From NCBI GenBank assembly GCA_040754475.1, contig JBFMCN010000036.1:24801-88800 (forward strand): a stretch of 64,000 bases of DNA. The letters are read 5' to 3'. Within the stretch, counting starts at the first letter, position 1; each line of letters begins with the position of its first letter. A program made the position numbers and the translations under genes. Of the stretch, positions 5,690 to 55,713 are shown one piece after another. The stretch is from Actinomycetota bacterium (GTDB lineage Bacteria > Actinomycetota > UBA4738 > HRBIN12). The notes under the pieces are model-generated. The model saw only the letters and a list, made by a program, of their open reading frames with translations, searched no databases and was not told the DNA's origin.

Positions 5690-6636
5690 GCGACACCGTG
5701 AAGCTCCACGCCCAGGGTAAGGTCCGGGACGTCTACGACGCGGGAGAACACCTGCTGCTGGTCGCGACCGACCGCATATCCGCGTTCGACGTCGTCCTTC
5801 CGAACCCTATCCCCGACAAGGGACGTGTCCTGACCGGGATGTCGCTGTTCTGGTTCGAGCGAACGAAGGACATCGTCGGCAACCATCTGATCTCGGGCGA
5901 CCGCCGGGACCTTCCCGAGCCCTTCCGCAGCGAACCGTCGCTTTCCGGGCGAGCGACGCTTGTGAAGAGGGCGAAGGTCATCCCCGCGGAGTGCGTGGCG
6001 CGTGGGTACCTGGCAGGTTCGGGTCTGAAGCAGTACCTGGCCGAGGGCCACGTGTGCGGCGTTCCGCTTCCTCCGGGCCTGAGGGAGTCCGACCGGCTGC
6101 CGGAGCCCATCTTCACGCCGACGACCAAAGCGGCCGAGGGTCACGATCTGCCGCTCACATTCGAGCAGACGGCCGACCTCGTAGGTAGGGGACTTGCAGA
6201 GAGGCTCCGGGAGCTCACGATCGCGCTCTACGAGCTCGGAGCCGAGATCGCGCTCGAGCGGGGAATCATCATCGCGGACACGAAGTTCGAGTTCGGGTTC
6301 GCGGAAGGGGAGCTGATCCTGGTCGACGAGGCGCTCACGCCGGATTCCTCCCGACTGTGGCCGGCCGACGGATACTCGCCCGGCCGGTCGCAGTCGTCCT
6401 TCGACAAGCAATACGTGCGCGACTGGCTAGATGCGAGCGGGTGGGACCACGAGCCGCCGCCTCCGGAGCTGCCCGCCGAGGTCGTGGCCAAGACCTCCCT
6501 CAAGTACCGCGAGGCGTTCGAGCGGATCACGAGGGAGAAGTTCGACCACTACCGGCACCGAATGGGCGTCATGAGCGATAGGGATTGGGAGTCGTGCGCG
6601 GTCGACCTCGAGCGGCTGCGAAGGGAGCATGCATGA
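5686..6636 (+). CDS. purC: phosphoribosylaminoimidazole-succinocarboxamide synthase
   Basis: KVRDVYD...LLLVATDRISAFDVVL SAICAR synthetase motifs. ATGA overlap with purB. Confidence 0.95.
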   Translation: MSDTVKLHAQGKVRDVYDAGEHLLLVATDRISAFDVVLPNPIPDKGRVLTGMSLFWFERTKDIVGNHLISGDRRDLPEPFRSEPSLSGRATLVKRAKVIPAECVARGYLAGSGLKQYLAEGHVCGVPLPPGLRESDRLPEPIFTPTTKAAEGHDLPLTFEQTADLVGRGLAERLRELTIALYELGAEIALERGIIIADTKFEFGFAEGELILVDEALTPDSSRLWPADGYSPGRSQSSFDKQYVRDWLDASGWDHEPPPPELPAEVVAKTSLKYREAFERITREKFDHYRHRMGVMSDRDWESCAVDLERLRREHA

Positions 6637-14062: not shown

Positions 14063-14200
14063 TTCCGAACCTCATCGTTTCGAAGTCTCTCGCGCATGTC
14101 CTTCTCACCGGGATCGAGTCTGCGAGAGCATATACACCGCGCCCGGTATCCGGACGACGGCCAAGGAACCGTCGGGCCAGGGTACCGCCGATGCGCAGAG

Positions 14201-14273
14201 TGGCCAGGGGCAGAATCGAACTGCCGACACCGCGGTTTTCAGCCGCGTGCTCTGCCAACTGAGCTACCTGGCC
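14201..14273 (-). tRNA. tRNA-Phe (anticodon GAA)
   Basis: Reverse complement GGCCAGGTAGCTCAGTTGGCAGAGCACGCGGCTGAAAACCGCGGTGTCGGCAGTTCGATTCTGCCCCTGGCCA folds as a cloverleaf with anticodon loop CTGAAAA. Confidence 0.9.
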
Positions 14274-14303
14274 GTAACCGGTCCTCGAGGACCGGGCGTC
14301 CAG

Positions 14304-14379
14304 CGCGGGTGACGGGCTTCGATCCCGCGATCTCCGCCTTGACAGGGCGGTGAGGACGGCCAGGCTCCTCTACACCCGC
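14304..14379 (-). tRNA. tRNA-Asp (anticodon GTC)
   Basis: Reverse complement GCGGGTGTAGAGGAGCCTGGCCGTCCTCACCGCCCTGTCAAGGCGGAGATCGCGGGATCGAAGCCCGTCACCCGCG. 7-bp acceptor stem, D, anticodon (CTGTCAA) and T arms all pair. The T-loop is unusual (ATCGAAG). Confidence 0.65.
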
Positions 14380-14395
14380 GTGCTATTCGGTTGTG

Positions 14396-14468
14396 TGCCC
14401 CCAACGGGATTCGAACCCGTGTCGCCGCCTTGAAAGGGCGAAATCCTGGGCCGCTAGACGATGGGGGC
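14396..14468 (-). tRNA. tRNA-Glu (anticodon TTC)
   Basis: Reverse complement GCCCCCATCGTCTAGCGGCCCAGGATTTCGCCCTTTCAAGGCGGCGACACGGGTTCGAATCCCGTTGGGGGCA is close to the canonical bacterial tRNA-Glu. Confidence 0.85.
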
Positions 14469-14826
14469 CCGTGCGTCCCCGGGACGCCCGTTGCGCCCGA
14501 CCTGGGGGCAGCCGAAGAAGTATAGCCTGCCCTGCTGCGGCCTCTGGAGCGGCGGGTTCAACACGTGCGTGGTGGTCGTTCACCATCCGGGTGGGCGCTC
14601 TACGGGAGGTGCCGATCGGCGCCGATGAGAGGTGCATGCGGGCGCTGCTCGAGTTCCTTGGGATCCTCGAGCCTGACCGAGCGCGCCGTGAGCCGGTCAC
14701 GCTGCCCTCGTGGGCTTTCTGGACGGCCCCACTCCTCGTCCTTGCCCTGGTGGTGGCTTCGACCCTCGTGCTCGTGGTCATTCGGGCCTTCTTCTGAACC
14801 GCGGCTCCGCGGGAAGGCGGCTCAGC

Positions 14827-15153
14827 TCAGTCCATCCGCATCTGATCGCCTGGCAGGAGATCGGCATCCTCGGGTGCCTCGAGCACGTGGAGTGCACGCA
14901 GACGTGGGAGCAGGAGCCTCCCGGGGGACACATGCTCGACTCGAACCACGCGAAGGTGTCGGTCGAGGAAGACCGCGGTGATCTCGAACCGCATGCCGAA
15001 CGTGTGGACCGACCGCGCGCGCTCGAACAGCATCGCACGCCGTTCCTGCAGTTGAGTGCGTCCCAGCAGACCTCGCGCCCGCTCGAACCGGCTCGTCGGA
15101 ACATCGACCTGCCAGGAGGAGCCTCGCGGGTCGGTCAACAGAATCGTTCGCAA
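14827..15153 (-). CDS. DUF192 domain-containing protein (108 aa)
   Basis: GLLGR...MLFER..SVHTFGMRFEITAVFLD...RVV matches the DUF192 (COG1430) pattern. No signal peptide. Confidence 0.65.
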   Translation of the reverse strand: MRTILLTDPRGSSWQVDVPTSRFERARGLLGRTQLQERRAMLFERARSVHTFGMRFEITAVFLDRHLRVVRVEHVSPGRLLLPRLRALHVLEAPEDADLLPGDQMRMD

Positions 15154-15192
15154 GAGGGGCCACCGTAGCGGATGGGTCGGACACGCCTTTCC

Positions 15193-15266
15193 GGAGTGGC
15201 TTGTGGAGTGGCGTGCGGAGTGGCTTGTGGAGTGGCTTGTGAGGTCTCAGTGTGAGGTCTCAGTAC
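15193..15266. repeat. tandem repeat block: 12-mer GGAGTGGCTTGT x4 (one variant GGAGTGGCGTGC) followed by 13-mer GAGGTCTCAGTGT x2
   Basis: Read directly in the sequence. It ends 3 nt from the 3' end of tRNA-Lys. Confidence 0.85.
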
Positions 15267-15269
15267 CCG

Positions 15270-15344
15270 TGGGGCGGGCAGGATTCGAACCCGCGACACG
15301 AGGGTTAAAAGCCCCCTGCTCTGACCCGGCTGAGCTACCGCCCC
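15270..15344 (-). tRNA. tRNA-Lys (anticodon TTT)
   Basis: Reverse complement GGGGCGGTAGCTCAGCCGGGTCAGAGCAGGGGGCTTTTAACCCTCGTGTCGCGGGTTCGAATCCTGCCCGCCCCA. Anticodon loop CTTTTAA. Confidence 0.9.
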
Positions 15345-20471: not shown

Positions 20472-23120
20472 GTGATCATGTCGGAGACGCTCAGGCGAGC
20501 GCTGGCCGAGGCGCCCGATCCGGAACTTGCGAGCTTGGCGGTATCTCGAGTGGGTGAGGACCCACGTGCGTACGAGGTTCTCATGCGCGAGGGCGTGCTG
20601 CCGCTGGCCGTCCAACTGCTCGGGTTCTCGACCGCGGCTGCGGACTTCCTCGTAGCACACCCCGATGAAGCGGGGGCCCTCGTGGACGTGCGCCCGCGCC
20701 TGCTGCCACAGCTCGCCGCCGAGCTCCGTGGCGACGTGGATCGGCTGGGCTTCGTTGCCGGCCTCCGCCTGTTCCGTCGGCGGGCGATGCTTCGGGTCGC
20801 CGCGCGCGATCTCGCCGGGGCGCGTTTCGAGGAGATCGTCGAGGAGATCAGCGATGTCGCGGAGGTCTGCCTGGATGAAGCGTGCCGGAGCGTGGCGGCC
20901 CTTGGGCTTGCGGTGGTGGGGCTGGGGAAGCTGGGCGGTAGGGAGCTCAACTACGCATCGGACGTTGACGTCGTCTTCCTCCACGAGGGGAGTGGGGGCA
21001 CGCGACAGGAGGAGGCTGGGCACGCGGTCGAGGAGATGATCAGGCTCCTGTCCGAGCCGACGTCCGAGGGCATCGCGCTCCGCGTCGATACCGCCCTTCG
21101 GCCGGGTGGCTACGGGTCCCCGCTCGCTCGGTCGCTCGATGCGATGCGTGAGTACTACGCGAGCCAGGCCGCGACATGGGAGCGGCAGGCACTCATCAAG
21201 GCGAGGCCAATCGCCGGCGACCGCTTCCTCGGCGAGGCGTTCGTCGAGATGGTCGCGCCGTTCGTCTACCCGGCGGAGCTCGCACCCGAGGCGATCAACG
21301 AAGTGCGCCGGGTGAAGGTAAGGCTGGAGGAGTACGTGCGCGCTCGCGGCAAAGCCGATATCGAGGTCAAACGCGGGTGGGGAGGGATCCGCGACGTCGA
21401 GTTCGCGGTGCAGCTCCTTCAGATCGTCCACGGCCGGCGAGACGAGCGCCTGCGTCAGCCGAACACTCTCCGCGCCCTCGCGACGCTTGCCGAGGAGGGG
21501 TATGTCGCCGAGTCCGATGCCGAGGCGCTGGCTGGTGCATATCGATTTCTGAGGACCCTCGAGCACCGGTTGCAGATGGTTCGGGACCTCCAGACCCATG
21601 AGCTACCTGCCGACAGCGCGTCTCGCCGCCGTCTCGCGCGCTCGCTGGGGCTGGAGGGGCCGGAGGCTCTGCAGGCCGAGTATGAGCGCAAGACGACTCT
21701 CGTTCGGGGGCTGCACGAACGCCTCTTCTATCGACCTCTCCTGGAGGCCTTCGCAGGTCCAAGGTTGCCGCGACCCGGCGTCGAGCGGGAGGCGACCGAG
21801 GAGCTGCTCGCGGGGCTCGGGTTTCGTCGGCCCTCGGCCGCCTACGAGGTCCTGGACAGGCTGGTCGACCCATCGACGCGCCTCGGGAAAGTGCTTGCCC
21901 ACGTGTTCCCGGTTATGGCACCGGCGCTTGCCCTGGCGTCGAATCCCGATGCGGCGCTCGTACGGCTCGAGCGCGTTACGGAGGCGCTCGAGGACGGTCG
22001 AGACGTCGCAGATGCCCTCGCGACCGATCCGGGAGCGGCTCGGCGACTGGCCAACACCGTGTCGGCGAGCTCATTCGCCACCGATCTCCTCGTGTCGCGG
22101 CCGGCTCGAGTGCTCTCGCTGGAGGAGCGCGCCGAAGACGTGGACGCCGCAGGAGCGCTCGTGTCGGTCGTCGGCCGGTGGGCGGCCCGCGAGCTTGATC
22201 CGAGGGATAGCGGCCGGGCGCTCGCGGCCGTGGCCGATCGCGTCGTGCGCGAGGCAGTCGAGGCCGCCGAGGCCGATCTCTCGTTCGCGGTGATCGGCCT
22301 GGGCAAGCTCGGCGCGGAGGAGCTGAACTTCGCATCGGACCTCGACGTGGTGTTCGTCTACGAAGGTGAGGGACCCGACGATTTCCGACGGGCCGCCGAC
22401 GTTGGCGAACGCGTGCTGGCCGGGATCCGCGACGCAGGGTGGGAGCCCGACGCTCGCCTACGCCCCGAGGGACGGGCGGGACCCCTCGCACGCTCGTTCA
22501 CGGCGTTCGTCGAATACTGGCAGCGGTACGCGCAGACCTGGGAGTTTCAGACGCTGCTCCGCGCGCGGTTCGTCGCGGGGGATGAGGCGCTCGGGCAACG
22601 CTTCTGCTCGTTCGCTGAGCGCTTCGCATACCCGGAGCGGCTGTCGATCGATCAGGTGGCGGAGATTCGCCGCATGCGCGAGCGTATCGAGCGCGAACGC
22701 GTCGGGCCGGTCGACGCCGGAACGTTCCACTTCAAGCTCGGATACGGTTCGCTTGCCGATGTGCAGTTCGCAGTGGAGCTATCACTGATGCGGCACGGTA
22801 TCGAGTTCCCAGAGGTCCGAGCAAGGAGCACGCTGGACGCGGTCGAGAGGCTGGCCCGAACGCGGCTCATGGAGGACAGCGTGGCCATGGCACTCGCCGA
22901 GGCGTTCGTGTTCCTCTCCGATGTCAAGAACGCGCTCGAAGTCGATCGGCGCGTGCACGCGGAGTCTGTTCCGCCCTCACCGGAGGAGCAGACGGCGCTC
23001 GCGCGGAGGCTCGGCTACGAGGAGTACCCGCGGCAGAGCTTCCTCGAGGACTACCGGAGGATCGCGCGGCGCGCACGTCGCGCGATGGAGCGCGTCTTCG
23101 CCGAGATCGACGAGCCCTGA
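20472..23120 (+). CDS. glnE: bifunctional glutamine synthetase adenylyltransferase/adenylyl-removing enzyme
   Basis: 882 aa with two nucleotidyltransferase modules (GKLGGRELNYASDVDVVF and GKLGAEELNFASDLDVVF). Confidence 0.9.
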   Translation: MIMSETLRRALAEAPDPELASLAVSRVGEDPRAYEVLMREGVLPLAVQLLGFSTAAADFLVAHPDEAGALVDVRPRLLPQLAAELRGDVDRLGFVAGLRLFRRRAMLRVAARDLAGARFEEIVEEISDVAEVCLDEACRSVAALGLAVVGLGKLGGRELNYASDVDVVFLHEGSGGTRQEEAGHAVEEMIRLLSEPTSEGIALRVDTALRPGGYGSPLARSLDAMREYYASQAATWERQALIKARPIAGDRFLGEAFVEMVAPFVYPAELAPEAINEVRRVKVRLEEYVRARGKADIEVKRGWGGIRDVEFAVQLLQIVHGRRDERLRQPNTLRALATLAEEGYVAESDAEALAGAYRFLRTLEHRLQMVRDLQTHELPADSASRRRLARSLGLEGPEALQAEYERKTTLVRGLHERLFYRPLLEAFAGPRLPRPGVEREATEELLAGLGFRRPSAAYEVLDRLVDPSTRLGKVLAHVFPVMAPALALASNPDAALVRLERVTEALEDGRDVADALATDPGAARRLANTVSASSFATDLLVSRPARVLSLEERAEDVDAAGALVSVVGRWAARELDPRDSGRALAAVADRVVREAVEAAEADLSFAVIGLGKLGAEELNFASDLDVVFVYEGEGPDDFRRAADVGERVLAGIRDAGWEPDARLRPEGRAGPLARSFTAFVEYWQRYAQTWEFQTLLRARFVAGDEALGQRFCSFAERFAYPERLSIDQVAEIRRMRERIERERVGPVDAGTFHFKLGYGSLADVQFAVELSLMRHGIEFPEVRARSTLDAVERLARTRLMEDSVAMALAEAFVFLSDVKNALEVDRRVHAESVPPSPEEQTALARRLGYEEYPRQSFLEDYRRIARRARRAMERVFAEIDEP

Positions 23121-49387: not shown

Positions 49388-50173
49388 CTACTTGGCCCGC
49401 GTTGCAGAGAACCGTGAGGTGACCTTCCGCACGCCCCATCGGTACAGCGGGGGCGTGAGGATGCGGAGCGCTTCCAGTGGCGCGACGGCACGAGGCACGG
49501 TTACTTGGGGCGCCTTACCCTTCTTCACCGTGTCAACGATGGCGGCCGCGACCTTCTCGGGCTTCATCAGGATCGCCTTCGGACGGTGCGTCTGGGGGAA
49601 GCGCTCGGTCACCGCGAACCCCGGGTTGACGCTCGTGACGAGGATCCCCTTCGGTCCAAGCTCGTAGTAGAGGGCTTCCGAGAATGCGATGACGCCCCTC
49701 TTCGTGGCCCCATACACGGACGCGCCCGGTGCGGCGAATCGTCCCGAGAGTGACGCCACGTTCACGATGTGGCCGCGCCCTTGTTCGAGCATCATCGGCA
49801 GGAACACCCTCGTGCAGAGCATCACGGCGAGCAGGTTCACGCGTACCACCTGCTCGATCGCCTCGAACGACAGGTCGATCAGGGGTCCACCGCCGGGGAT
49901 GCCGGCGTTGTTGACGAGAACGTCGCAGCGCCCGTAGGCCTCGTCGACGCGGTCTCGGAGCTCCTCGAGGTCGGCGAGCTTCGTCACGTCGCAGGGGACG
50001 ACGACGGCGCTTCCGCCTCGGGCAGCGATCTGCTCTGCGACGCCCTCGAGCCGCTCGGCGCGGCGGGCGGCGAGCGCGACATTCGCCCCTTCGCTCGCCA
50101 GGAGCTTCGCCGTGAGCTCCCCGAACCCCGAGGAGGCACCGGTGACGACGGCAACCGCTCCGCGAAGCTCCAT
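49388..50173 (-). CDS. SDR family oxidoreductase
   Basis: VTGASSGFG cofactor motif, NNAG, Y-x3-K. ATG 50173 chosen. The longer ORF N-terminus overlaps the neighbour. Confidence 0.85.
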   Translation of the reverse strand: MELRGAVAVVTGASSGFGELTAKLLASEGANVALAARRAERLEGVAEQIAARGGSAVVVPCDVTKLADLEELRDRVDEAYGRCDVLVNNAGIPGGGPLIDLSFEAIEQVVRVNLLAVMLCTRVFLPMMLEQGRGHIVNVASLSGRFAAPGASVYGATKRGVIAFSEALYYELGPKGILVTSVNPGFAVTERFPQTHRPKAILMKPEKVAAAIVDTVKKGKAPQVTVPRAVAPLEALRILTPPLYRWGVRKVTSRFSATRAK

Positions 50174-50243: not shown

Positions 50244-51086
50244 ATGGAAGCACCGATGGACGTTATCGAATCCCACGTCTCGCGGCTCCCGCATATGGAT
50301 GATCGCTGGAACCCGCAGCCGTTCGACAGACGGAATCTCGTGCGCGGACTGGTGGATGGGGGCATCGCGGGTCCGATGGTCGGTCATCCGATGGAGAACG
50401 TGCTCGGCAACATCCGGCGGCTCTTGGACGGGGATGAGGACAAGCTATTCGGGATGAGCGGGCTCGCCGGCGCGATGACGCCGGACGGAGTGCTCGGGCT
50501 CGTCGGCCGAGCGGCCGGCTTCGAACCGGACCCGGAGTGGACGAGCGGACCGGTCCCGGTCGATCCGAATCTGGTGCTCGATGGCTGCGAGGCCGTCGGC
50601 GACCGGCTGGCCCTCGCTTGCAGGCGCCGCGAGCGGATGATCCTGGCGACCGGTCACCCCGTGGGGCTCGCGCACCTGTATGTCGAGGTCGGGCGCCAGC
50701 TCCGGAGACGGGGAGCTGAGCTGCTGCAGCCCTACGAGGGTGTGCCCTGGAGTGAGGAAGGCGGGCACGAGCTGCGGGAGGTCCGGTTCCTGGAGGGAGT
50801 CGCCATGCTCGCCGATCAGGCCTCGATGAGGCACACGCACAGCGGAGCGCCGATGTTCCGGATGCTGCGCGTGGCTTCTCCCGATCTCGTCTTCGCCGAC
50901 CACGGGTTCGCGGGGGCGGCCATCGAGTCCGGCGTGGAGACGCTCTCCATCGCCGACGTGAACGACCCGGCCCTGCTCGTGGCAAAGGCCCAGGGTCGAA
51001 CCCAGGCCGTGATCGTGATGGACGACAACGTTCAGCCCGAGGACTACTGGCCGTGCTTCCAGGCCATCTGTGCTCGGCTCCCATGA
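50244..51086 (+). CDS. conserved hypothetical protein (280 aa)
   Basis: Good coding composition. Motifs ATGHPVG, HTHSG, ADHGFAG. No family assigned. Confidence 0.5.
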   Translation: MEAPMDVIESHVSRLPHMDDRWNPQPFDRRNLVRGLVDGGIAGPMVGHPMENVLGNIRRLLDGDEDKLFGMSGLAGAMTPDGVLGLVGRAAGFEPDPEWTSGPVPVDPNLVLDGCEAVGDRLALACRRRERMILATGHPVGLAHLYVEVGRQLRRRGAELLQPYEGVPWSEEGGHELREVRFLEGVAMLADQASMRHTHSGAPMFRMLRVASPDLVFADHGFAGAAIESGVETLSIADVNDPALLVAKAQGRTQAVIVMDDNVQPEDYWPCFQAICARLP

Positions 51087-51310
51087 TCTCGGAGGCCGTC
51101 CCGGTTGCCCCCGGGTAGAATCGGGTCACGTTGAAGATGAAACCCTTCTCCGAGGCACGGTTCGTTTGCGCGAAGAGGCTTACACGCCCTGTGCGAGGGT
51201 CCATGTCCGCCCACCTACCCACCGGACGGAAGGATCCGCCCGCGAGCTGACTTCCCGCACGCACGGAACGAGGCCTCCAAGGAGGGCTTGGAGCCCACCC
51301 GGAGGCGAAG

Positions 51311-52201
51311 GTGAACGAGCACGAGGCGCTCGTCGAGAGGGCCGTGCGCGACATGAGCACGGTGCTGTTGATCGGCGGGCTGGACACTGGCAAGACCACG
51401 CTGTCCCTGTCATTGCTGCGGGCGGCTGTGGAGGCCGGGCGACCGTCGGCGTTTCTGGACGCCGACGTCGGGCAGAAGACAGTTGGGCCACCGGCGACGC
51501 TCACGCTCAAGGTGGTACGGCAACCGGTGGATCTGGAGCCCCAGGCGATGGCCGAGGCCGACGCCCTCTACTTCGTCGGATCGACTTCGCCCCAGGGTCA
51601 TCTACTGCAAGTCGTGACCGGAGTTGCGAGCCTCGCGGTCAGGGCGAGGCAGTGGGGGGCCGAGTTCGTAGTTGCCGACTCGAGCGGACTCGTCTCTGGC
51701 GTGTACGGGCAGAGCCTCAAGTACCACAAGGTGGAGATGCTCCGGCCGGACCTGGTCGTTGGCCTCCAGCGTGGGGAGGAGCTGCAGCCGCTCCTCGGCG
51801 TGATCCAGCGTTTCTTCCGAACCGAGGTCGTGCCGCTCGGGGTTCACGCCGACGTCGTGCCCACCACCGTCGAGCGGCGGGCCGAGAGCCGCGAGGAGGC
51901 GATGGCCAGGTACTTCTCCAAGGAGCTCCACCGCTGGCGCGTGAAGCCGACGGTGTTCATGCCGGCCCTCCCGCCACTGTTCGATCTGTCTCAGCTCGAC
52001 CGGCTTCTCGTCGGCCTCTCCGACGGTGCGGGTGCGTACCTCGGGATCGGGTACCTGGAGTGCGCTTCCGAGGAGGGGGTCCTGCGCCTCATCTCTCCTG
52101 TGGCAGAAGGACCGAAGGCGCTTAGACTGGGCTCCGTTCGCCTGGAGGAGGGCTACCGCGCCAAGCGGGTCGACCTCCGGAACCTGTTCGGATCAGGCTG
52201 A
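51311..52201 (+). CDS. Clp1/Grc3/Nol9-family P-loop polynucleotide 5'-kinase homolog
   Basis: VLLIGGLDTGKTTLSLSLLRAAVEAGRPSAFLDADVGQKTVGPPATL aligns with the eukaryotic Clp1 Walker A plus clasp region (VLVVGPTDVGKSTV...ELDVGQGSV). GTG start with SD GGAGG. Confidence 0.7.
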   Translation: MNEHEALVERAVRDMSTVLLIGGLDTGKTTLSLSLLRAAVEAGRPSAFLDADVGQKTVGPPATLTLKVVRQPVDLEPQAMAEADALYFVGSTSPQGHLLQVVTGVASLAVRARQWGAEFVVADSSGLVSGVYGQSLKYHKVEMLRPDLVVGLQRGEELQPLLGVIQRFFRTEVVPLGVHADVVPTTVERRAESREEAMARYFSKELHRWRVKPTVFMPALPPLFDLSQLDRLLVGLSDGAGAYLGIGYLECASEEGVLRLISPVAEGPKALRLGSVRLEEGYRAKRVDLRNLFGSG

Positions 52202-52217
52202 TGGAGAAGGGAACCGC

Positions 52218-52319
52218 GTGCCTTCGCTGATCAAGAAGCGCCGCAAGAAGATGCGGAAGAAGAAGCACAGGAAGCTCTTGAAGAAGACCCGCTGGCAACG
52301 TCGTCAGCAGGGTCGCTAG
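52218..52319 (+). CDS. 30S ribosomal protein bS22 (33 aa, actinobacterial)
   Basis: [33 protein letters not shown] is near-identical in pattern to mycobacterial bS22 [33 protein letters not shown] (recalled from memory). SD GGAGAAGGGAA 5 nt upstream of the GTG. Confidence 0.8.
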   Translation: [33 protein letters not shown]

Positions 52320-52338
52320 GAGCGCGGGGCCCGGACCC

Positions 52339-53109
52339 ATGCCGAACACGGGGGCGCGCCGAATCCGCAGCCTCCGAACCGTCGCCCTGATGTTCGCCGT
52401 CGCCCTGATCGTCGGTGGCTGCAGCCGTGACGGGACGCAGGAGCTGAGTGTCGACCTGGCCGAGTCGAGGGCTGTGACGTTCAGCACCGCGGACGGCGTC
52501 CGGCTCGCGGGCCGGCTGTTCGGAGAGGGCGACGTTGGCGTCGTCCTCTCCCACATGCTCCCTGCGGATCAAACGTCCTGGTGGGCCTTCGCGAGGACCA
52601 TGGCGGACGAGGGATACGTGGTCCTTACGTTCGACTTCCGAGGTTACTGTCCGGGCGGCGACGCCGGCTGCTCAAGCGGCACGAGGGACATATCGGAGAT
52701 CTGGCTGGACGTGCTGGGGGCGGTCGAGTTCCTGCAGGGGCAGGGTGCTCGCCGGATCGTGCTCGTCGGCGCCAGTATGGGGGGTACGGCCTCGCTCGTG
52801 GCGGCCGCCCAGCCCGGGGTCGATGTGACCGCTGTGGTCACGCTGTCGGCGCCAACGTCGATCGAGGGGCTCACAGCCGACGCGAGCACACTGGCGGAGA
52901 TCACAGCTGCCAAGCTGTTCGTCGCCGGCAACGGCGATCCGATGGGCGCGGCCGAGGCGGCACGGCAACTCCTGGCGCAGTCACAGCCCCCGAGGCGCCT
53001 GGAGATCGTCGACTCGAGCGACCACGGAACCGACCTCCTTAACCACGGCCAGGCCGAGTACGTGCAGACGCTCCTCCTCGACCATCTCGATGAGTGGGCT
53101 CGGGTCTGA
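52339..53109 (+). CDS. alpha/beta hydrolase lipoprotein (dienelactone hydrolase-like)
   Basis: Lipobox LIVGGC after a basic n-region. Nucleophile elbow GASMGG. Confidence 0.7.
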   Translation: MPNTGARRIRSLRTVALMFAVALIVGGCSRDGTQELSVDLAESRAVTFSTADGVRLAGRLFGEGDVGVVLSHMLPADQTSWWAFARTMADEGYVVLTFDFRGYCPGGDAGCSSGTRDISEIWLDVLGAVEFLQGQGARRIVLVGASMGGTASLVAAAQPGVDVTAVVTLSAPTSIEGLTADASTLAEITAAKLFVAGNGDPMGAAEAARQLLAQSQPPRRLEIVDSSDHGTDLLNHGQAEYVQTLLLDHLDEWARV

Positions 53110-53936
53110 TGCGCCCCATCGTGTTCCTCAGCGACTACGGGCTCGGGGGCGAGCTCGTCGGCGTGTGTCACGGTGTGATGGCGAGGATCGCCGCCGGCGT
53201 GCAGGTGATCGACCTCACGCACTCCGTACCGAGGCAGGACGTCCTCCAGGGGGCGGTCACGCTGGCCAGGGCGGTCCGCTTCATGCCGGAAGACGCCGTG
53301 TACCTCGCCGTGGTCGACCCAGGAGTCGGCTCGGAGCGCCGGCCCGTGGCGGTCGAGGCCTCCTCTGGGGCGCTCCTAGCGGGGCCGGACAACGGCCTGC
53401 TCTCGATGGCGTGGGAAGCGCTGGGCGGTACGGCCAGGGCGGTGGAGATCGCATCGGAGGACGTCCTCCTCCAGCCGGTGTCCCGAACCTTCCACGGGCG
53501 GGACGTGTTCGCACCGGCCGCCGCGCACCTGGCGGCCGGGCTGGCGCTCGAGGCCCTCGGCCCCGCCGTCGATCCGGGTTCGCTCCGCCGCATGGACCTC
53601 CCCGGGCCCATGGTCACGCCCGGCGCGATCGGGGCGAGGGTTGTCGTGATCGACGGGTTCGGCAACGTGCAGCTCAACGTCGCCCCCGAGGACCTGGAGG
53701 CTGCGGGTCTTCGGGGACCGCTGTCCTTCGGGCGCTGGACGATTCTGCGGGCGGCGACCTTCGCCGACGTGCCGAGAGGAGCCCTGGCGGCGATCTTCGA
53801 CTCGCAGGGCTTCCTGGCGCTCGTCGTCAACCACGGTAGCGCGGCGAGGATGCTCGGCCTGGAGGCCGGCGCCACGGTGAGGCTGTCCCGCGCCTCCGAA
53901 GCGGACCAGTTGCCTACCGCACGACCTGCACAGTAA
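53109..53936 (+). CDS. SAM hydroxide adenosyltransferase family protein (DUF62, fluorinase/chlorinase-like SAM hydrolase)
   Basis: IVFLSDYG...AVVDPGVG...DNGLL...FHGRDVFAP are family hallmarks. ATGA overlap with the hydrolase gene. Confidence 0.8.
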   Translation: MRPIVFLSDYGLGGELVGVCHGVMARIAAGVQVIDLTHSVPRQDVLQGAVTLARAVRFMPEDAVYLAVVDPGVGSERRPVAVEASSGALLAGPDNGLLSMAWEALGGTARAVEIASEDVLLQPVSRTFHGRDVFAPAAAHLAAGLALEALGPAVDPGSLRRMDLPGPMVTPGAIGARVVVIDGFGNVQLNVAPEDLEAAGLRGPLSFGRWTILRAATFADVPRGALAAIFDSQGFLALVVNHGSAARMLGLEAGATVRLSRASEADQLPTARPAQ

Positions 53937-55713
53937 GGAAGGCCTTGCCCTTCACGACGAGGTCCTGCGCCCGGCTGGTCTGCGTGCCGAACCCCGTCGC
54001 GATGAGGTCGTTTGGATGCTCTCCGCCGCTCAGGTGCGCGAGCAGCTCGTCGAAGGACCGGGGCGGGGAAACGAACCGTTCCTTGCCGCCGCGCAGCATG
54101 ATGGTTTCGAACCCACCGGCCCACGAGGGCACCTTCATCTGCATCTTCGTGATGACGTTCGGCCCGCCGTCGAGCGGTGTGAGCGTCGTTTCGATCGTGA
54201 TCTTGTCGCCCGGCCGTACCTTCAGAAGGCTCCGCTGTGCGAGCTTCGGCTGGAGCGAGCTGGCCGTCCGGACCCTCGTGATCGTCCCCCGAAGCTGCTG
54301 CTGGGTGATCTCTCCGGCGGCATGGATGCCGGTGAACGTGACCTTCTCGAACTTGTTGTATGCGAGCTGGTATACGGCGTCGACGAGCTTGTAGGCCGCA
54401 TACATGGCGTCGTAGTCGGAGTAGACCATGGTCCGGTTCTCGATCGTGAAGGGCATGCCCTCCGCGGTCAGGCCCTCGATCGTGTAGGCGATGCTCAGCG
54501 TGCCGTCCCCGATACGCTGGGCTACTGCGCCCAGGTTCCCGATCATGTGGCTCCACACGATCTCCGGGAACCAGAAGCCGGCCTGGTAGATCGCTTCGGT
54601 CTTGCCGTCCCGAGACAATCCCGTGTCAGGGCTGGAGAAGGAGGAGGTGATGGGTGTCACCTCGGGCGAGGTGCCGACCGTTCCGACCGATCCGGCGAAC
54701 CGGTCCTGGGTAAAGGTCCCCCTGGGCTCGGTCAGGACGGGCACCATGTCCCCCGGCCATATGCCGCCCCCGCTTCCGACCGCGAGGACCTCCGCGCCGG
54801 TCATCCCGATCGTGACGTCGCCAGGGGGGGAGCCGAAGAGCGTGTGCCCGTACGCGATGAGCTTGCTGCCGCACGTCAACGTGACCGTTCCTGCAGTCCA
54901 GATCGTGGCGTCTCCCCAAGAGAGCACCGATCCGATCGGCTGTCCGGGTGCGAACGGCACCGAGCTCACCGGCAGCCCCGCGCTCATCCCGGCGGCGGGA
55001 GCAACGTGCATCCCCGCGTGGTTACGGTCCAGGACGTCTTGGAACCGCCGGAGCTGGCCCGTCGACAGGCCGGAGACTCCCAGGTAGGTCGGGATCCGCT
55101 GAAGACCGCTCGGCGCCTGGCTTGCCGGCACTCCCAGCGCGCGGGCAACGGTCCTCCTTGTGGCGGGATCAAAGGCGATCCGCTCGGGGAGCCGAACGGC
55201 CCCGGCTTTCGAGAGGTTGAACATGTCGACCATCGCCTGGGCTGGTGTGAGGCCGAATATCGTCGGGTCGCCCGAGACCGCGTAGGACACGGCGCCCACC
55301 AGCTTCCCATCGATGTAGACGGGCGAGCCCGACATCCCGTAGAAAGCTCCCCCTACCTCATCGAGGAACGATTGCGGTCCGGTCATCCGGGCCACGACGA
55401 CGTCTATTCCAAGCCAGATGTAGTCGGGCATGACACCGAGGATCTCTACGTCGAACCTGGTCGGTGTCGTGCCCTCGATGGTGGTGAGCCCGGTGCCGGT
55501 CATGCCGGCCCGAATCTGGGCCTCGGGGAAGACTGCAGGCTGGCTCGAGCAGCTGCTCGCGGCCGGTGCCGGAGCGGCGGCCAGGGTCGTTGCGAGGAGC
55601 GCGAAGACCACGACGGCCGTGCCGAGTATGCCGCGTCGTCGGTCGAGGGAACCAGAGTTGCGCACGAACACCACCCCCTTCTCAAGTGCGATCCTACGCC
55701 TCGGACGGACCAA
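53914..55713 (-). CDS. secreted serine peptidase, S55 (SpoIVB-like)/trypsin-fold
   Basis: Signal peptide (RRRGILGTAVVVFALLATTLAAAPAPAAS). Catalytic-serine context FYGMSGSPVYIDGKLVGAVSYA. Family assignment from memory. Confidence 0.55.
   Translation of the reverse strand: MVRPRRRIALEKGVVFVRNSGSLDRRRGILGTAVVVFALLATTLAAAPAPAASSCSSQPAVFPEAQIRAGMTGTGLTTIEGTTPTRFDVEILGVMPDYIWLGIDVVVARMTGPQSFLDEVGGAFYGMSGSPVYIDGKLVGAVSYAVSGDPTIFGLTPAQAMVDMFNLSKAGAVRLPERIAFDPATRRTVARALGVPASQAPSGLQRIPTYLGVSGLSTGQLRRFQDVLDRNHAGMHVAPAAGMSAGLPVSSVPFAPGQPIGSVLSWGDATIWTAGTVTLTCGSKLIAYGHTLFGSPPGDVTIGMTGAEVLAVGSGGGIWPGDMVPVLTEPRGTFTQDRFAGSVGTVGTSPEVTPITSSFSSPDTGLSRDGKTEAIYQAGFWFPEIVWSHMIGNLGAVAQRIGDGTLSIAYTIEGLTAEGMPFTIENRTMVYSDYDAMYAAYKLVDAVYQLAYNKFEKVTFTGIHAAGEITQQQLRGTITRVRTASSLQPKLAQRSLLKVRPGDKITIETTLTPLDGGPNVITKMQMKVPSWAGGFETIMLRGGKERFVSPPRSFDELLAHLSGGEHPNDLIATGFGTQTSRAQDLVVKGKAFLTVQVVR

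Follow-up and report, generated by a model that had tools for sequence, protein, structure and literature searches.

The window analysed here, a 64-kb stretch of a contig from an Actinomycetota genome with 68% GC, carries a clp1 gene for a protein of 296 aa and, directly downstream, a gene for the 33-aa ribosomal protein bS22 (coordinates are window positions unless they are given for another locus, L). That the 296-aa protein is a member of the Clp1 family is certain for practical purposes. Taken together, the results probably describe a competent Clp1-family 5′-OH kinase, encoded in a native chromosomal cluster and probably produced from one transcript with bS22. A first-pass annotation, made from the DNA letters alone, had already placed the protein among the Clp1/Grc3/Nol9 kinases, and profile, fold and motifs strongly confirmed this. 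The positions of both genes, the 16-nt spacer between them and both identities were likewise borne out by the open reading frames (ORFs), the CLP1_P profile and the NF047430 model.

Clp1 identity by profile and fold

The protein matched Pfam PF16575 (CLP1_P) with an E-value of 1.6e-35 and 123.1 bits, compared with a cut-off of 26.6 bits, over profile positions 1–187 of 188. All 51 of 51 diverse homologues of the 296-aa protein matched CLP1_P as well. CbiA, the next-best P-loop family, gave 21.5 bits (E = 2e-4), i.e., below its cut-off of 25.4, and outscored CLP1_P in 0/51 homologues. CLP1_P was thus the best profile, and the unrelated P-loop families named as possible competitors in the first-pass annotation did not compete. 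In a search of solved structures, human CLP1 aligned over residues 16–202 (E = 1e-12). With a profile of the 51 homologues, the match to human CLP1 improved to E = 1.9e-26, and residues 245–283 weakly matched the C-terminal domains of NOL9 and worm Clp1.

The AlphaFold model was built on the 51-sequence alignment and showed a predicted local distance difference test score (pLDDT) of 96.1 and a predicted template modelling score (pTM) of 0.92; the single-sequence model reached only pLDDT 34. In the Foldseek search of the PDB, the best 23 matches were all Clp1, Grc3 or NOL9, with query-normalised template modelling (TM) scores of 0.58–0.75. Human CLP1 (8hmy_E) was the top match, with an E-value of 1e-20 and a TM score of 0.75. 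SRP54 was the first fold outside the Clp1 family (E = 4e-5), and the gap in Foldseek E-value between Clp1-family proteins and other P-loop folds was about 5 to 15 orders of magnitude. Comparison with Clp1 structures, which had been proposed as a check on the original assignment, therefore placed Clp1 closest to the model and Grc3/NOL9 next.

Two domains were distinguished in the protein, a kinase domain at about residues 15–205 and a Clp1/NOL9-like C-terminal beta domain at about 206–296. The eukaryotic N-terminal domain was absent, and only 15 residues precede the kinase domain. Judging from the TM score of 0.75 over 308 columns and from the weak profile matches, the fold match in the model probably covers the C-terminal domain too. 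Human and worm Clp1 were nearer than Grc3/NOL9 both by sequence and by fold. The Grc3/Nol9 subfamily was not indicated, as Clp1 proper scored higher, no Las1 HEPN partner was present in the window, and the N- and C-terminal domains of the subfamily were lacking in the protein. An identical protein in NCBI is already annotated as polynucleotide 5′-hydroxyl-kinase, and relatives at JGI are annotated as “polynucleotide 5′-hydroxyl-kinase GRC3/NOL9”.

Catalytic motifs

Motifs were defined after Pillon et al. 2018 (PMC5900568). Conservation was counted in 84 unique clade sequences, and the 51 homologues, which go down to about 27% identity, served as the second comparison set. The P-loop GxxxxGK[T/S] was found as G22-GLDT-G27-K28-T29; G22, G27 and K28 were invariant and position 29 was Ser or Thr in both sets. 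The Walker B motif [D/E]hhQ, which supplies the catalytic Asp and a Gln that binds the RNA phosphate (PMC5900568), was D52-V-G-Q55, the same as the DVGQ of the aligned human CLP1. D52 was kept in 84/84 and Q55 in 81/84 clade sequences. The lid arginines R190 and R194 were invariant in 84/84 and 51/51 sequences, aligned to the arginines of human CLP1 RRECR, and were followed by a conserved Y201-F202. D50 and D123 were also invariant in the clade, and the invariant clade residues were likewise invariant or nearly so in the 51 distant homologues. Of 88 full-length tblastn alignments, 1 contained a stop codon.

The first-pass annotation had recognised GGLDTGKTT as the P-loop, which is correct; its second motif, FLDADVGQ, is the Walker B motif and not the clasp. 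The true position of the clasp, [T/S/L]xGW, reads S124-S-G126-L127 and has no Trp. Its Ser/Thr and Gly were retained (G126 in 84/84), and the Trp position was occupied by Leu, Met, Phe or Ile in the clade and by L/F/M/Y/T/A in the 51 distant homologues, never by Trp. In Grc3 the clasp Trp contacts RNA and is required for activity, as seen with W364A (PMC5900568). As a whole, the motif pattern is what would be expected of an active enzyme that is kept by purifying selection; its one systematic deviation from the eukaryotic consensus concerns an RNA-contacting residue. We infer kinase activity because the characterised homologues are active and the catalytic motifs are conserved.

The same residues bear on the possibility that the protein is a kinase-dead nucleotide-binding scaffold comparable to yeast Clp1, or that it belongs to an unrelated P-loop NTPase group such as MobB/CobQ/BioD. 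Yeast Clp1 binds ATP without kinase activity (PMC6777427), and both the weak CbiA match and the departure of the clasp from the family consensus agree with such a protein. However, there is little or no variation across 84 sequences at the Walker B Asp and Gln, the P-loop Lys and Thr/Ser and the two lid arginines, the top structural matches all belong to the Clp1 family, and CbiA never scores above CLP1_P in the 51 homologues, which makes this explanation very improbable.

One relative at 50% identity (P0122; L005/L006, 5001–5897) has DADIVL instead of DADVGQ in Walker B and retains the HTH_17-clp1-bS22 gene order. The Gly and the RNA-binding Gln are lost there, and its kinase may therefore be impaired.

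Distribution of the kinase

The exhaustive search of representatives gave 2104 clusters at 50% identity with E ≤ 1e-3, and 125 with E ≤ 1e-30. In GTDB contigs, taken as one genome per species, at least 268 species encode a relative of the kinase. The best 80 of these are 66–83% identical to it and form one clade, nearly all of them metagenome-assembled genomes (MAGs) of uncultured Actinomycetota; relatives at 46–51% identity include an Egibacteraceae MAG. Saito et al. 2019 reported Clp1-family proteins from 144 species of bacteria, or 0.9% of the complete genomes (PMC6777427). The remark in the first-pass annotation that such kinases are rarely described in bacteria is hence right as to rarity, but bacterial members have been published, one has been assayed, and NCBI and JGI already name the protein.

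A 2.2-kb contig with an 82%-identical clp1-bS22-hydrolase cluster (L008, JBHGAT010000373.1) was deposited as Candidatus Velamenicoccus archaeovorus (Omnitrophota). The contig most likely stems from an actinobacterium and was misplaced during binning.

Conservation of the clp1–bS22 pair

The 33-aa ORF matched the NCBIfam model NF047430 (ribo_bS22) with E = 6.4e-15 and 55 bits (cut-off 34), and Pfam COX24_C (PF08213) with E = 1.3e-8 and 35 bits (cut-off 23). Across related loci, bS22 identity was 73–94%. The clp1 stop codon is at 52199–52201, and the 16-nt spacer contains the bS22 ribosome-binding site GGAGAAGGG. The clp1 ORF itself showed GC values of 0.73, 0.44 and 0.85 at codon positions 1, 2 and 3, the pattern of a real gene, and its start is preceded by a GGAGG ribosome-binding site.

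Neighbours were counted in the best 80 of the at least 268 GTDB species, with the assessable species as denominators. The bS22 gene was immediately 3′ of clp1 in 78/78 species. The phosphatase gene lay 5′ of clp1 in 64/67, and the alpha/beta hydrolase gene was at its position in 66/75. Lower values were obtained for SAM_HAT, the S-adenosylmethionine (SAM) hydroxide adenosyltransferase family (37/68), for the short-chain dehydrogenase (35/62) and for an intact HTH_17 gene (9/74). In a neighbourhood that is otherwise eroding, no junction is as stable as clp1–bS22. The two genes are probably co-transcribed, because the spacer is only 16 nt long, a generic scan of the cluster found no terminator-like site, and bS22 lies downstream in 78/78 species; the co-transcription suggested in the first-pass annotation is thus supported indirectly.

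Outside the clade the pair was less constant. Five lineages at 46–51% identity were compared, and in three of them (P0123, P0124 and P0125) bS22 was not beside clp1. P0122 has the order HTH_17-clp1-bS22-SAM_HAT, and P0126 has phosphatase-HTH_17-clp1-bS22-SAM_HAT-epimerase-acyltransferase, with 75 nt and an own GGGTAGAATC box between clp1 and bS22. In P0123, phosphatase and clp1 are followed by a convergent gene; in P0125 (Egibacteraceae, locus L217), SAM_HAT starts 8 nt after clp1; in P0124, SAM_HAT is upstream and divergent. SAM_HAT thus neighbours clp1 in 4/5 relatives at about 50% identity. The intact HTH_17-clp1-bS22 order was present in L092–L096, L005 and L218. In relatives at ≤40% identity, clp1 stood in unrelated contexts, e.g., between NUDIX and uracil-DNA glycosylase (UDG) genes or beside a pseudouridine synthase gene. 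The synteny with bS22, whose conservation across Actinobacteria had been proposed as a check, therefore holds throughout the clade (78/78) but is lost in 3/5 lineages at 46–51% and at ≤40% identity.

In L218 (46% identity), a 10-mer identical to GGGTAGAATC is located at 5921–5930, between clp1 and bS22, which suggests a separate bS22 promoter in that lineage.

In L088 (1412–3401), the 40%-identical P0147 occurs in a tight NUDIX-clp1-UDG order with overlapping stops and starts. This arrangement is a hint that the branch may belong to a context of DNA or nucleotide repair.

bS22 loci without Clp1

With a DNA pattern that encodes the bS22 core KKKHRKLL, 80 metagenomic loci with mainstream actinobacterial bS22 were retrieved (L097–L176), 67 of which were assessable (at least 300 nt upstream). 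In 43/67 loci, an HTH_17 homologue (46–62% identity) was directly 5′ of bS22 on the same strand. No Clp1 homologue was found in these bS22 loci, a zero that is partly by construction, since with its codon choice the pattern is unable to detect bS22 genes of the Clp1 clade. The order phosphatase-HTH_17-bS22 was observed in three loci without detected Clp1 (L105, L135 and L143), one of them with SAM_HAT 57 nt downstream. These loci show that the phosphatase, HTH_17, bS22 and SAM_HAT genes form a block that does not depend on Clp1. The slot between HTH_17 and bS22 is taken by clp1 in a lineage-specific way, through insertion there or loss elsewhere. Adjacency to bS22 is stable within the clade and is not general to the kinase family, and bS22 needs no kinase neighbour.

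The actinobacterial HTH_17-bS22 pair is similar to the window locus in having the same small excisionase-type HTH gene directly before bS22 on the same strand. It differs in that clp1 is interposed and the HTH gene is decayed in the window. Rv0500A-Rv0500B of M. tuberculosis is presumably such an HTH_17-bS22 pair. In the literature searched, no discussion of this pairing of a regulator-like gene with a ribosomal protein gene was found, the search for Rv0499 gave nothing, and no paper was found that names bS22 together with Clp1.

It has been suggested that the kinase acts in rRNA or ribosome maturation, and in the fullest form of this idea it would be a dedicated ribosome-biogenesis factor like Grc3/Nol9, which phosphorylates the 5′-OH of a cut rRNA precursor for trimming by a 5′-to-3′ exonuclease and is co-expressed with bS22, both acting at the 30S subunit. 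Three points speak for it: the pair is kept in 78/78 clade species and, at about 50% identity, in the lineages P0122 and P0126; the fold matches Grc3 and NOL9; and the clp1–bS22 junction is the steadiest one of an eroding neighbourhood. On the other side, 3/5 relatives at 46–51% identity have no adjacent bS22, L217 has SAM_HAT 8 nt after clp1, and distant relatives stand beside NUDIX and UDG or pseudouridine synthase genes, whereas bS22 keeps its HTH_17 partner without Clp1 in 43/67 loci. The window has no Las1/HEPN gene, Clp1 proper is closer than Grc3/NOL9, and the cluster also includes an alpha/beta hydrolase and a SAM hydrolase. Tight packing leaves few breakpoints, so adjacency may persist without a functional link, and bS22 is dispensable in M. 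smegmatis (PMC10081302). We therefore regard a dedicated ribosome factor as unlikely. The maturation role put forward in the first-pass annotation found nothing beyond adjacency in its favour and is possible but unsupported.

Region upstream of clp1

The 224-nt stretch between the phosphatase gene and clp1 could be aligned to intact HTH_17 genes (L043 and L086) once a deletion of about 83 nt was allowed for, and the frame translations agreed. Read in this way, the stretch 5′ of clp1 is a decayed HTH_17 gene that retains only the N-terminal codons KPFSEARFV. The ORF that follows these codons is scrambled, yet their DNA block, GAGGCnCGGTTCG, was conserved in ≥80% of 40 species. Intact HTH_17 genes of 64–83 aa were present between phosphatase and clp1 in other loci (L022, L043, L056, L071, L078, L081, L086, L087 and L092–L096). 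L092 carries the phosphatase, HTH_17 and clp1 cluster with gaps of 28, 64, 12 and 15 nt.

The TAGnAT of the −10-like box was conserved in ≥80% of 40 aligned species and was also present 5′ of the intact HTH_17 start of L043. From this conservation, the box is likely the promoter of the cluster; the generic scan of the cluster detected no sigma-70 promoter.

Closer to clp1, GCCUCC (51273–51278) was predicted to pair with GGAGGC (51301–51306), which is the clp1 Shine–Dalgarno (SD) sequence. RNAfold gave −24.8 kcal/mol and z = −2.6 for the window sequence. A hairpin with a GCCUCC-type 5′ arm appeared in 8/8 folded sequences and covered the Shine–Dalgarno in 7/8, the exception being L092. The anti-SD ... 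SD arrangement was found in 65/77 unique upstream regions. The hairpin interior was highly variable in length and sequence, and one-sided C-to-U changes retained G-U pairing. When RNAalifold was applied to a plain MAFFT alignment, the hairpin over the ribosome-binding site did not emerge. If real, the hairpin would lower translation of the kinase relative to bS22 on a shared mRNA.

Locus layout and neighbouring genes

The features around clp1 are collected in Table 1. Every gene from phosphatase through SAM hydrolase is on the + strand. Downstream of the 16-nt clp1–bS22 spacer, 19 nt separate bS22 from the hydrolase gene, and the hydrolase and SAM hydrolase genes overlap by 16 nt.

Table 1. 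Genes and sequence features in and around the clp1–bS22 cluster.
Feature	Position	Strand	Evidence or remark
Short-chain dehydrogenase	49388–50173	−	divergent from the cluster
Pfam PF15698 ‘Phosphatase’ gene, 276 aa	50256–51086	+	Pfam E = 1.3e-57
Non-coding stretch, 224 nt	51087–51310		between phosphatase gene and clp1
Conserved −10-like box GGGTAGAATC	51113–51122	+	TAGAAT at 51116–51121; likely cluster promoter
HTH_17 (excisionase-type) gene remnant, 39-aa ORF	51131–51250	+	DNA alignment with intact HTH_17 genes
Predicted hairpin, GCCUCC × clp1 Shine–Dalgarno GGAGGC	51273–51306	+	RNAfold
clp1, 296 aa, GTG start	51311–52201	+	Pfam CLP1_P
rpsV-like bS22 gene, 33 aa, GTG start	52218–52319	+	NCBIfam NF047430, Pfam COX24_C
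Alpha/beta hydrolase	52339–53109	+	Pfam Abhydrolase_1 E = 2e-10
SAM hydroxide adenosyltransferase / (R)-SAM hydrolase family	53094–53936	+	SAM_HAT_N E = 4.5e-49, SAM_HAT_C; last gene of the co-directional cluster
Convergent gene	53914–55713	−	next gene after the cluster

The phosphatase start was set at the methionine of MDVIESH, which is common to the homologues (274–281 aa); ATG 50244 is an alternative. The PF15698 protein, a putative phosphatase, has the invariant motifs TGHP, HTH, DHG and NDPAL. Sequence and profile searches gave no solved relative, no NCBIfam model was found for it, and the literature search for PF15698 gave nothing. A 5′-kinase gene that adjoins a gene named ‘Phosphatase’ resembles the end-healing pair of T4 Pnkp or bacterial Pnkp-Hen1. 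This reading was considered but not adopted, since the phosphatase belongs to the Clp1-independent block, also occurs without Clp1 and has no solved relative. The window kinase, moreover, is of the Clp1 family and not of the T4 Pnk type. No RtcB, RNA ligase, Hen1 or HEPN/Las1 was found among the domains of the called ORFs in the window. The SAM hydrolase gene matched the NCBIfam (R)-SAM hydrolase model below its cut-off.

The remaining genes of the window are housekeeping genes (purine synthesis, glnA/glnE/glnR, sulfate assimilation and nuo), and the GC content is uniform at 0.66–0.71. Because of this uniform GC and these neighbours, clp1 is considered native to the chromosome, and recent horizontal transfer was rejected. 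In PADLOC, the kinase and four neighbours had no match at E ≤ 0.01, and an anti-phage defence reading was rejected on this ground. Rfam gave no match in 50900–52500 even at E ≤ 1, and its matches across the window were tRNAs only.

Four tRNA genes (Phe, Asp, Glu and Lys) at 14200–15344 on the − strand were backed by both Rfam and ARAGORN. A 96-nt ‘tRNA-Asp’ reported by ARAGORN at 22605–22700 lies inside the ORF of GlnE adenylyltransferase (20472–23120), had no Rfam confirmation and is probably a false positive.

Comparison with characterised kinases

Human and C. elegans Clp1 are RNA 5′-kinases that function in tRNA splicing and in forming mRNA 3′ ends. These proteins (8hmy_E, 4ohv–4oi2) were the best matches of the window protein, with E = 1e-12 by sequence, 1e-20 by fold and TM scores of 0.72–0.75, and they share the motif order of P-loop, DVGQ Walker B, T/S-x-G clasp, RxxxR lid and YF. 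The window protein differs from them in having no N-terminal domain, Leu for Trp in the clasp and an identity of only about 20–24%; its locus shows no TSEN or cleavage-factor context.

Grc3/NOL9 with Las1 form the eukaryotic machine that processes internal transcribed spacer 2 (ITS2) of pre-rRNA, and the Las1 partner defines the pathway. The kinase fold is shared (E about 1e-13 to 1e-10), together with the weak C-terminal profile match to NOL9, and a ribosome link is suggested solely by the bS22 neighbour. The window protein differs in that it lacks the N-terminal domain and C-terminal tail found in these proteins, and no Las1/HEPN gene accompanies it in the window.

The assayed prokaryotic enzymes are similar in design. 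Thermus scotoductus Ts-Clp1 phosphorylates single-stranded RNA (ssRNA) and, less well, single-stranded DNA (ssDNA) (PMC6777427), and the same preference is described for Pyrococcus horikoshii Ph-Clp1 (Jain and Shuman 2009, as cited in PMC6777427). Like the window protein, they are single-gene prokaryotic proteins whose CLP1_P kinase domain has a P-loop and Walker B motif, they lack the eukaryotic N-terminal domain, and ATP-dependent 5′-OH phosphorylation is the chemistry expected of them. Ts-Clp1 has been reported without an N- or C-terminal domain (PMC6777427), and by this description it is set apart from the window protein, which has a C-terminal beta domain. The lid arginines are fully conserved in the window group, whereas the lid of Ts-Clp1 is less conserved. 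The clasp without Trp and the membership of a large uncultured actinobacterial clade also distinguish the window protein from Ts-Clp1 and Ph-Clp1, and the fixed bS22 neighbour of that clade is a context not reported in PMC6777427.

The activity of these enzymes on ssDNA (PMC6777427) raises the question of a kinase that acts mainly on DNA 5′-OH ends in strand-break repair. The absent clasp Trp may loosen RNA specificity, the 40%-identical relative in L088 sits between NUDIX and uracil-DNA glycosylase genes, and a gene of the AP_endonuc_2 family is located 3.5 kb from clp1. But RNA is the preferred substrate of the characterised homologues, AP_endonuc_2 is a generic TIM-barrel family whose gene is part of the same conserved block in other loci, and neither a DNA ligase gene nor a known DNA-repair 3′-phosphatase gene is adjacent to clp1. 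A mainly DNA-directed kinase is decidedly unlikely on this balance.

Proposed function and its implications

By analogy with the assayed prokaryotic Clp1 enzymes, the protein would transfer phosphate from ATP onto 5′-OH ends, most likely of ssRNA and possibly of DNA. Such ends arise from metal-independent endoribonucleases or from self-cleavage, and once phosphorylated they could become substrates for ligation or for processing and decay that depend on a 5′-monophosphate. The characterised homologues suggest, as the default reading, a general role in healing or licensing of 5′-OH RNA ends. The clp1 gene would most likely be transcribed together with bS22, and probably with the two metabolic genes as well, from the promoter about 190 nt upstream, 5′ of the HTH_17 remnant. 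The hairpin would hold kinase synthesis at a low level, and bS22 would be translated from a site of its own. Seen in evolution, clp1 fills the HTH_17/bS22 slot of an operon that occurs widely among Actinobacteria, there without Clp1.

Several points weigh against this proposal of a competent RNA 5′-kinase on a shared transcript. The kinase activity of the 296-aa protein is a prediction whose precedent lies in homologues, and the structural model depends on the 51-sequence alignment. The replacement of the clasp Trp throughout the group may alter substrate binding. The 64-kb window yielded no partner ligase or nuclease. For the hairpin, the shuffled control already paired in 69%, and formal covariation in anchored pair counts was weak, with little beyond G-C runs. 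An internal bS22 promoter in the 3′ end of clp1 is possible; in the relative L218, a −10-like box lies between clp1 and bS22. With these points included, the proposal still appears probable to us.

A bolder version, which we consider quite improbable, is that the kinase is a true ribosome-biogenesis or repair factor that acts on 16S precursors or toxin-cleaved rRNA and licenses 5′-to-3′ trimming or re-ligation, with one mRNA for kinase and bS22 and the hairpin setting their ratio. If true, the step performed by Grc3/Nol9 in eukaryotes would have a bacterial counterpart here.

Current knowledge is not overturned by the proposed 5′-OH RNA kinase; standard annotation pipelines already assign the family, and bacterial Clp1 kinases have been published (Saito 2019). 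Through this locus, the few bacterial Clp1-type kinases on record are joined by those of a large, uncultured actinobacterial clade with a uniform gene organisation. The locus also shows that the conserved actinobacterial HTH_17-bS22 operon is able to gain a gene and lose a regulator. The constant place of clp1 before a ribosomal protein gene leads to a testable hypothesis, namely that the metabolism of 5′-OH RNA ends may be tied to the small ribosomal subunit in these bacteria.

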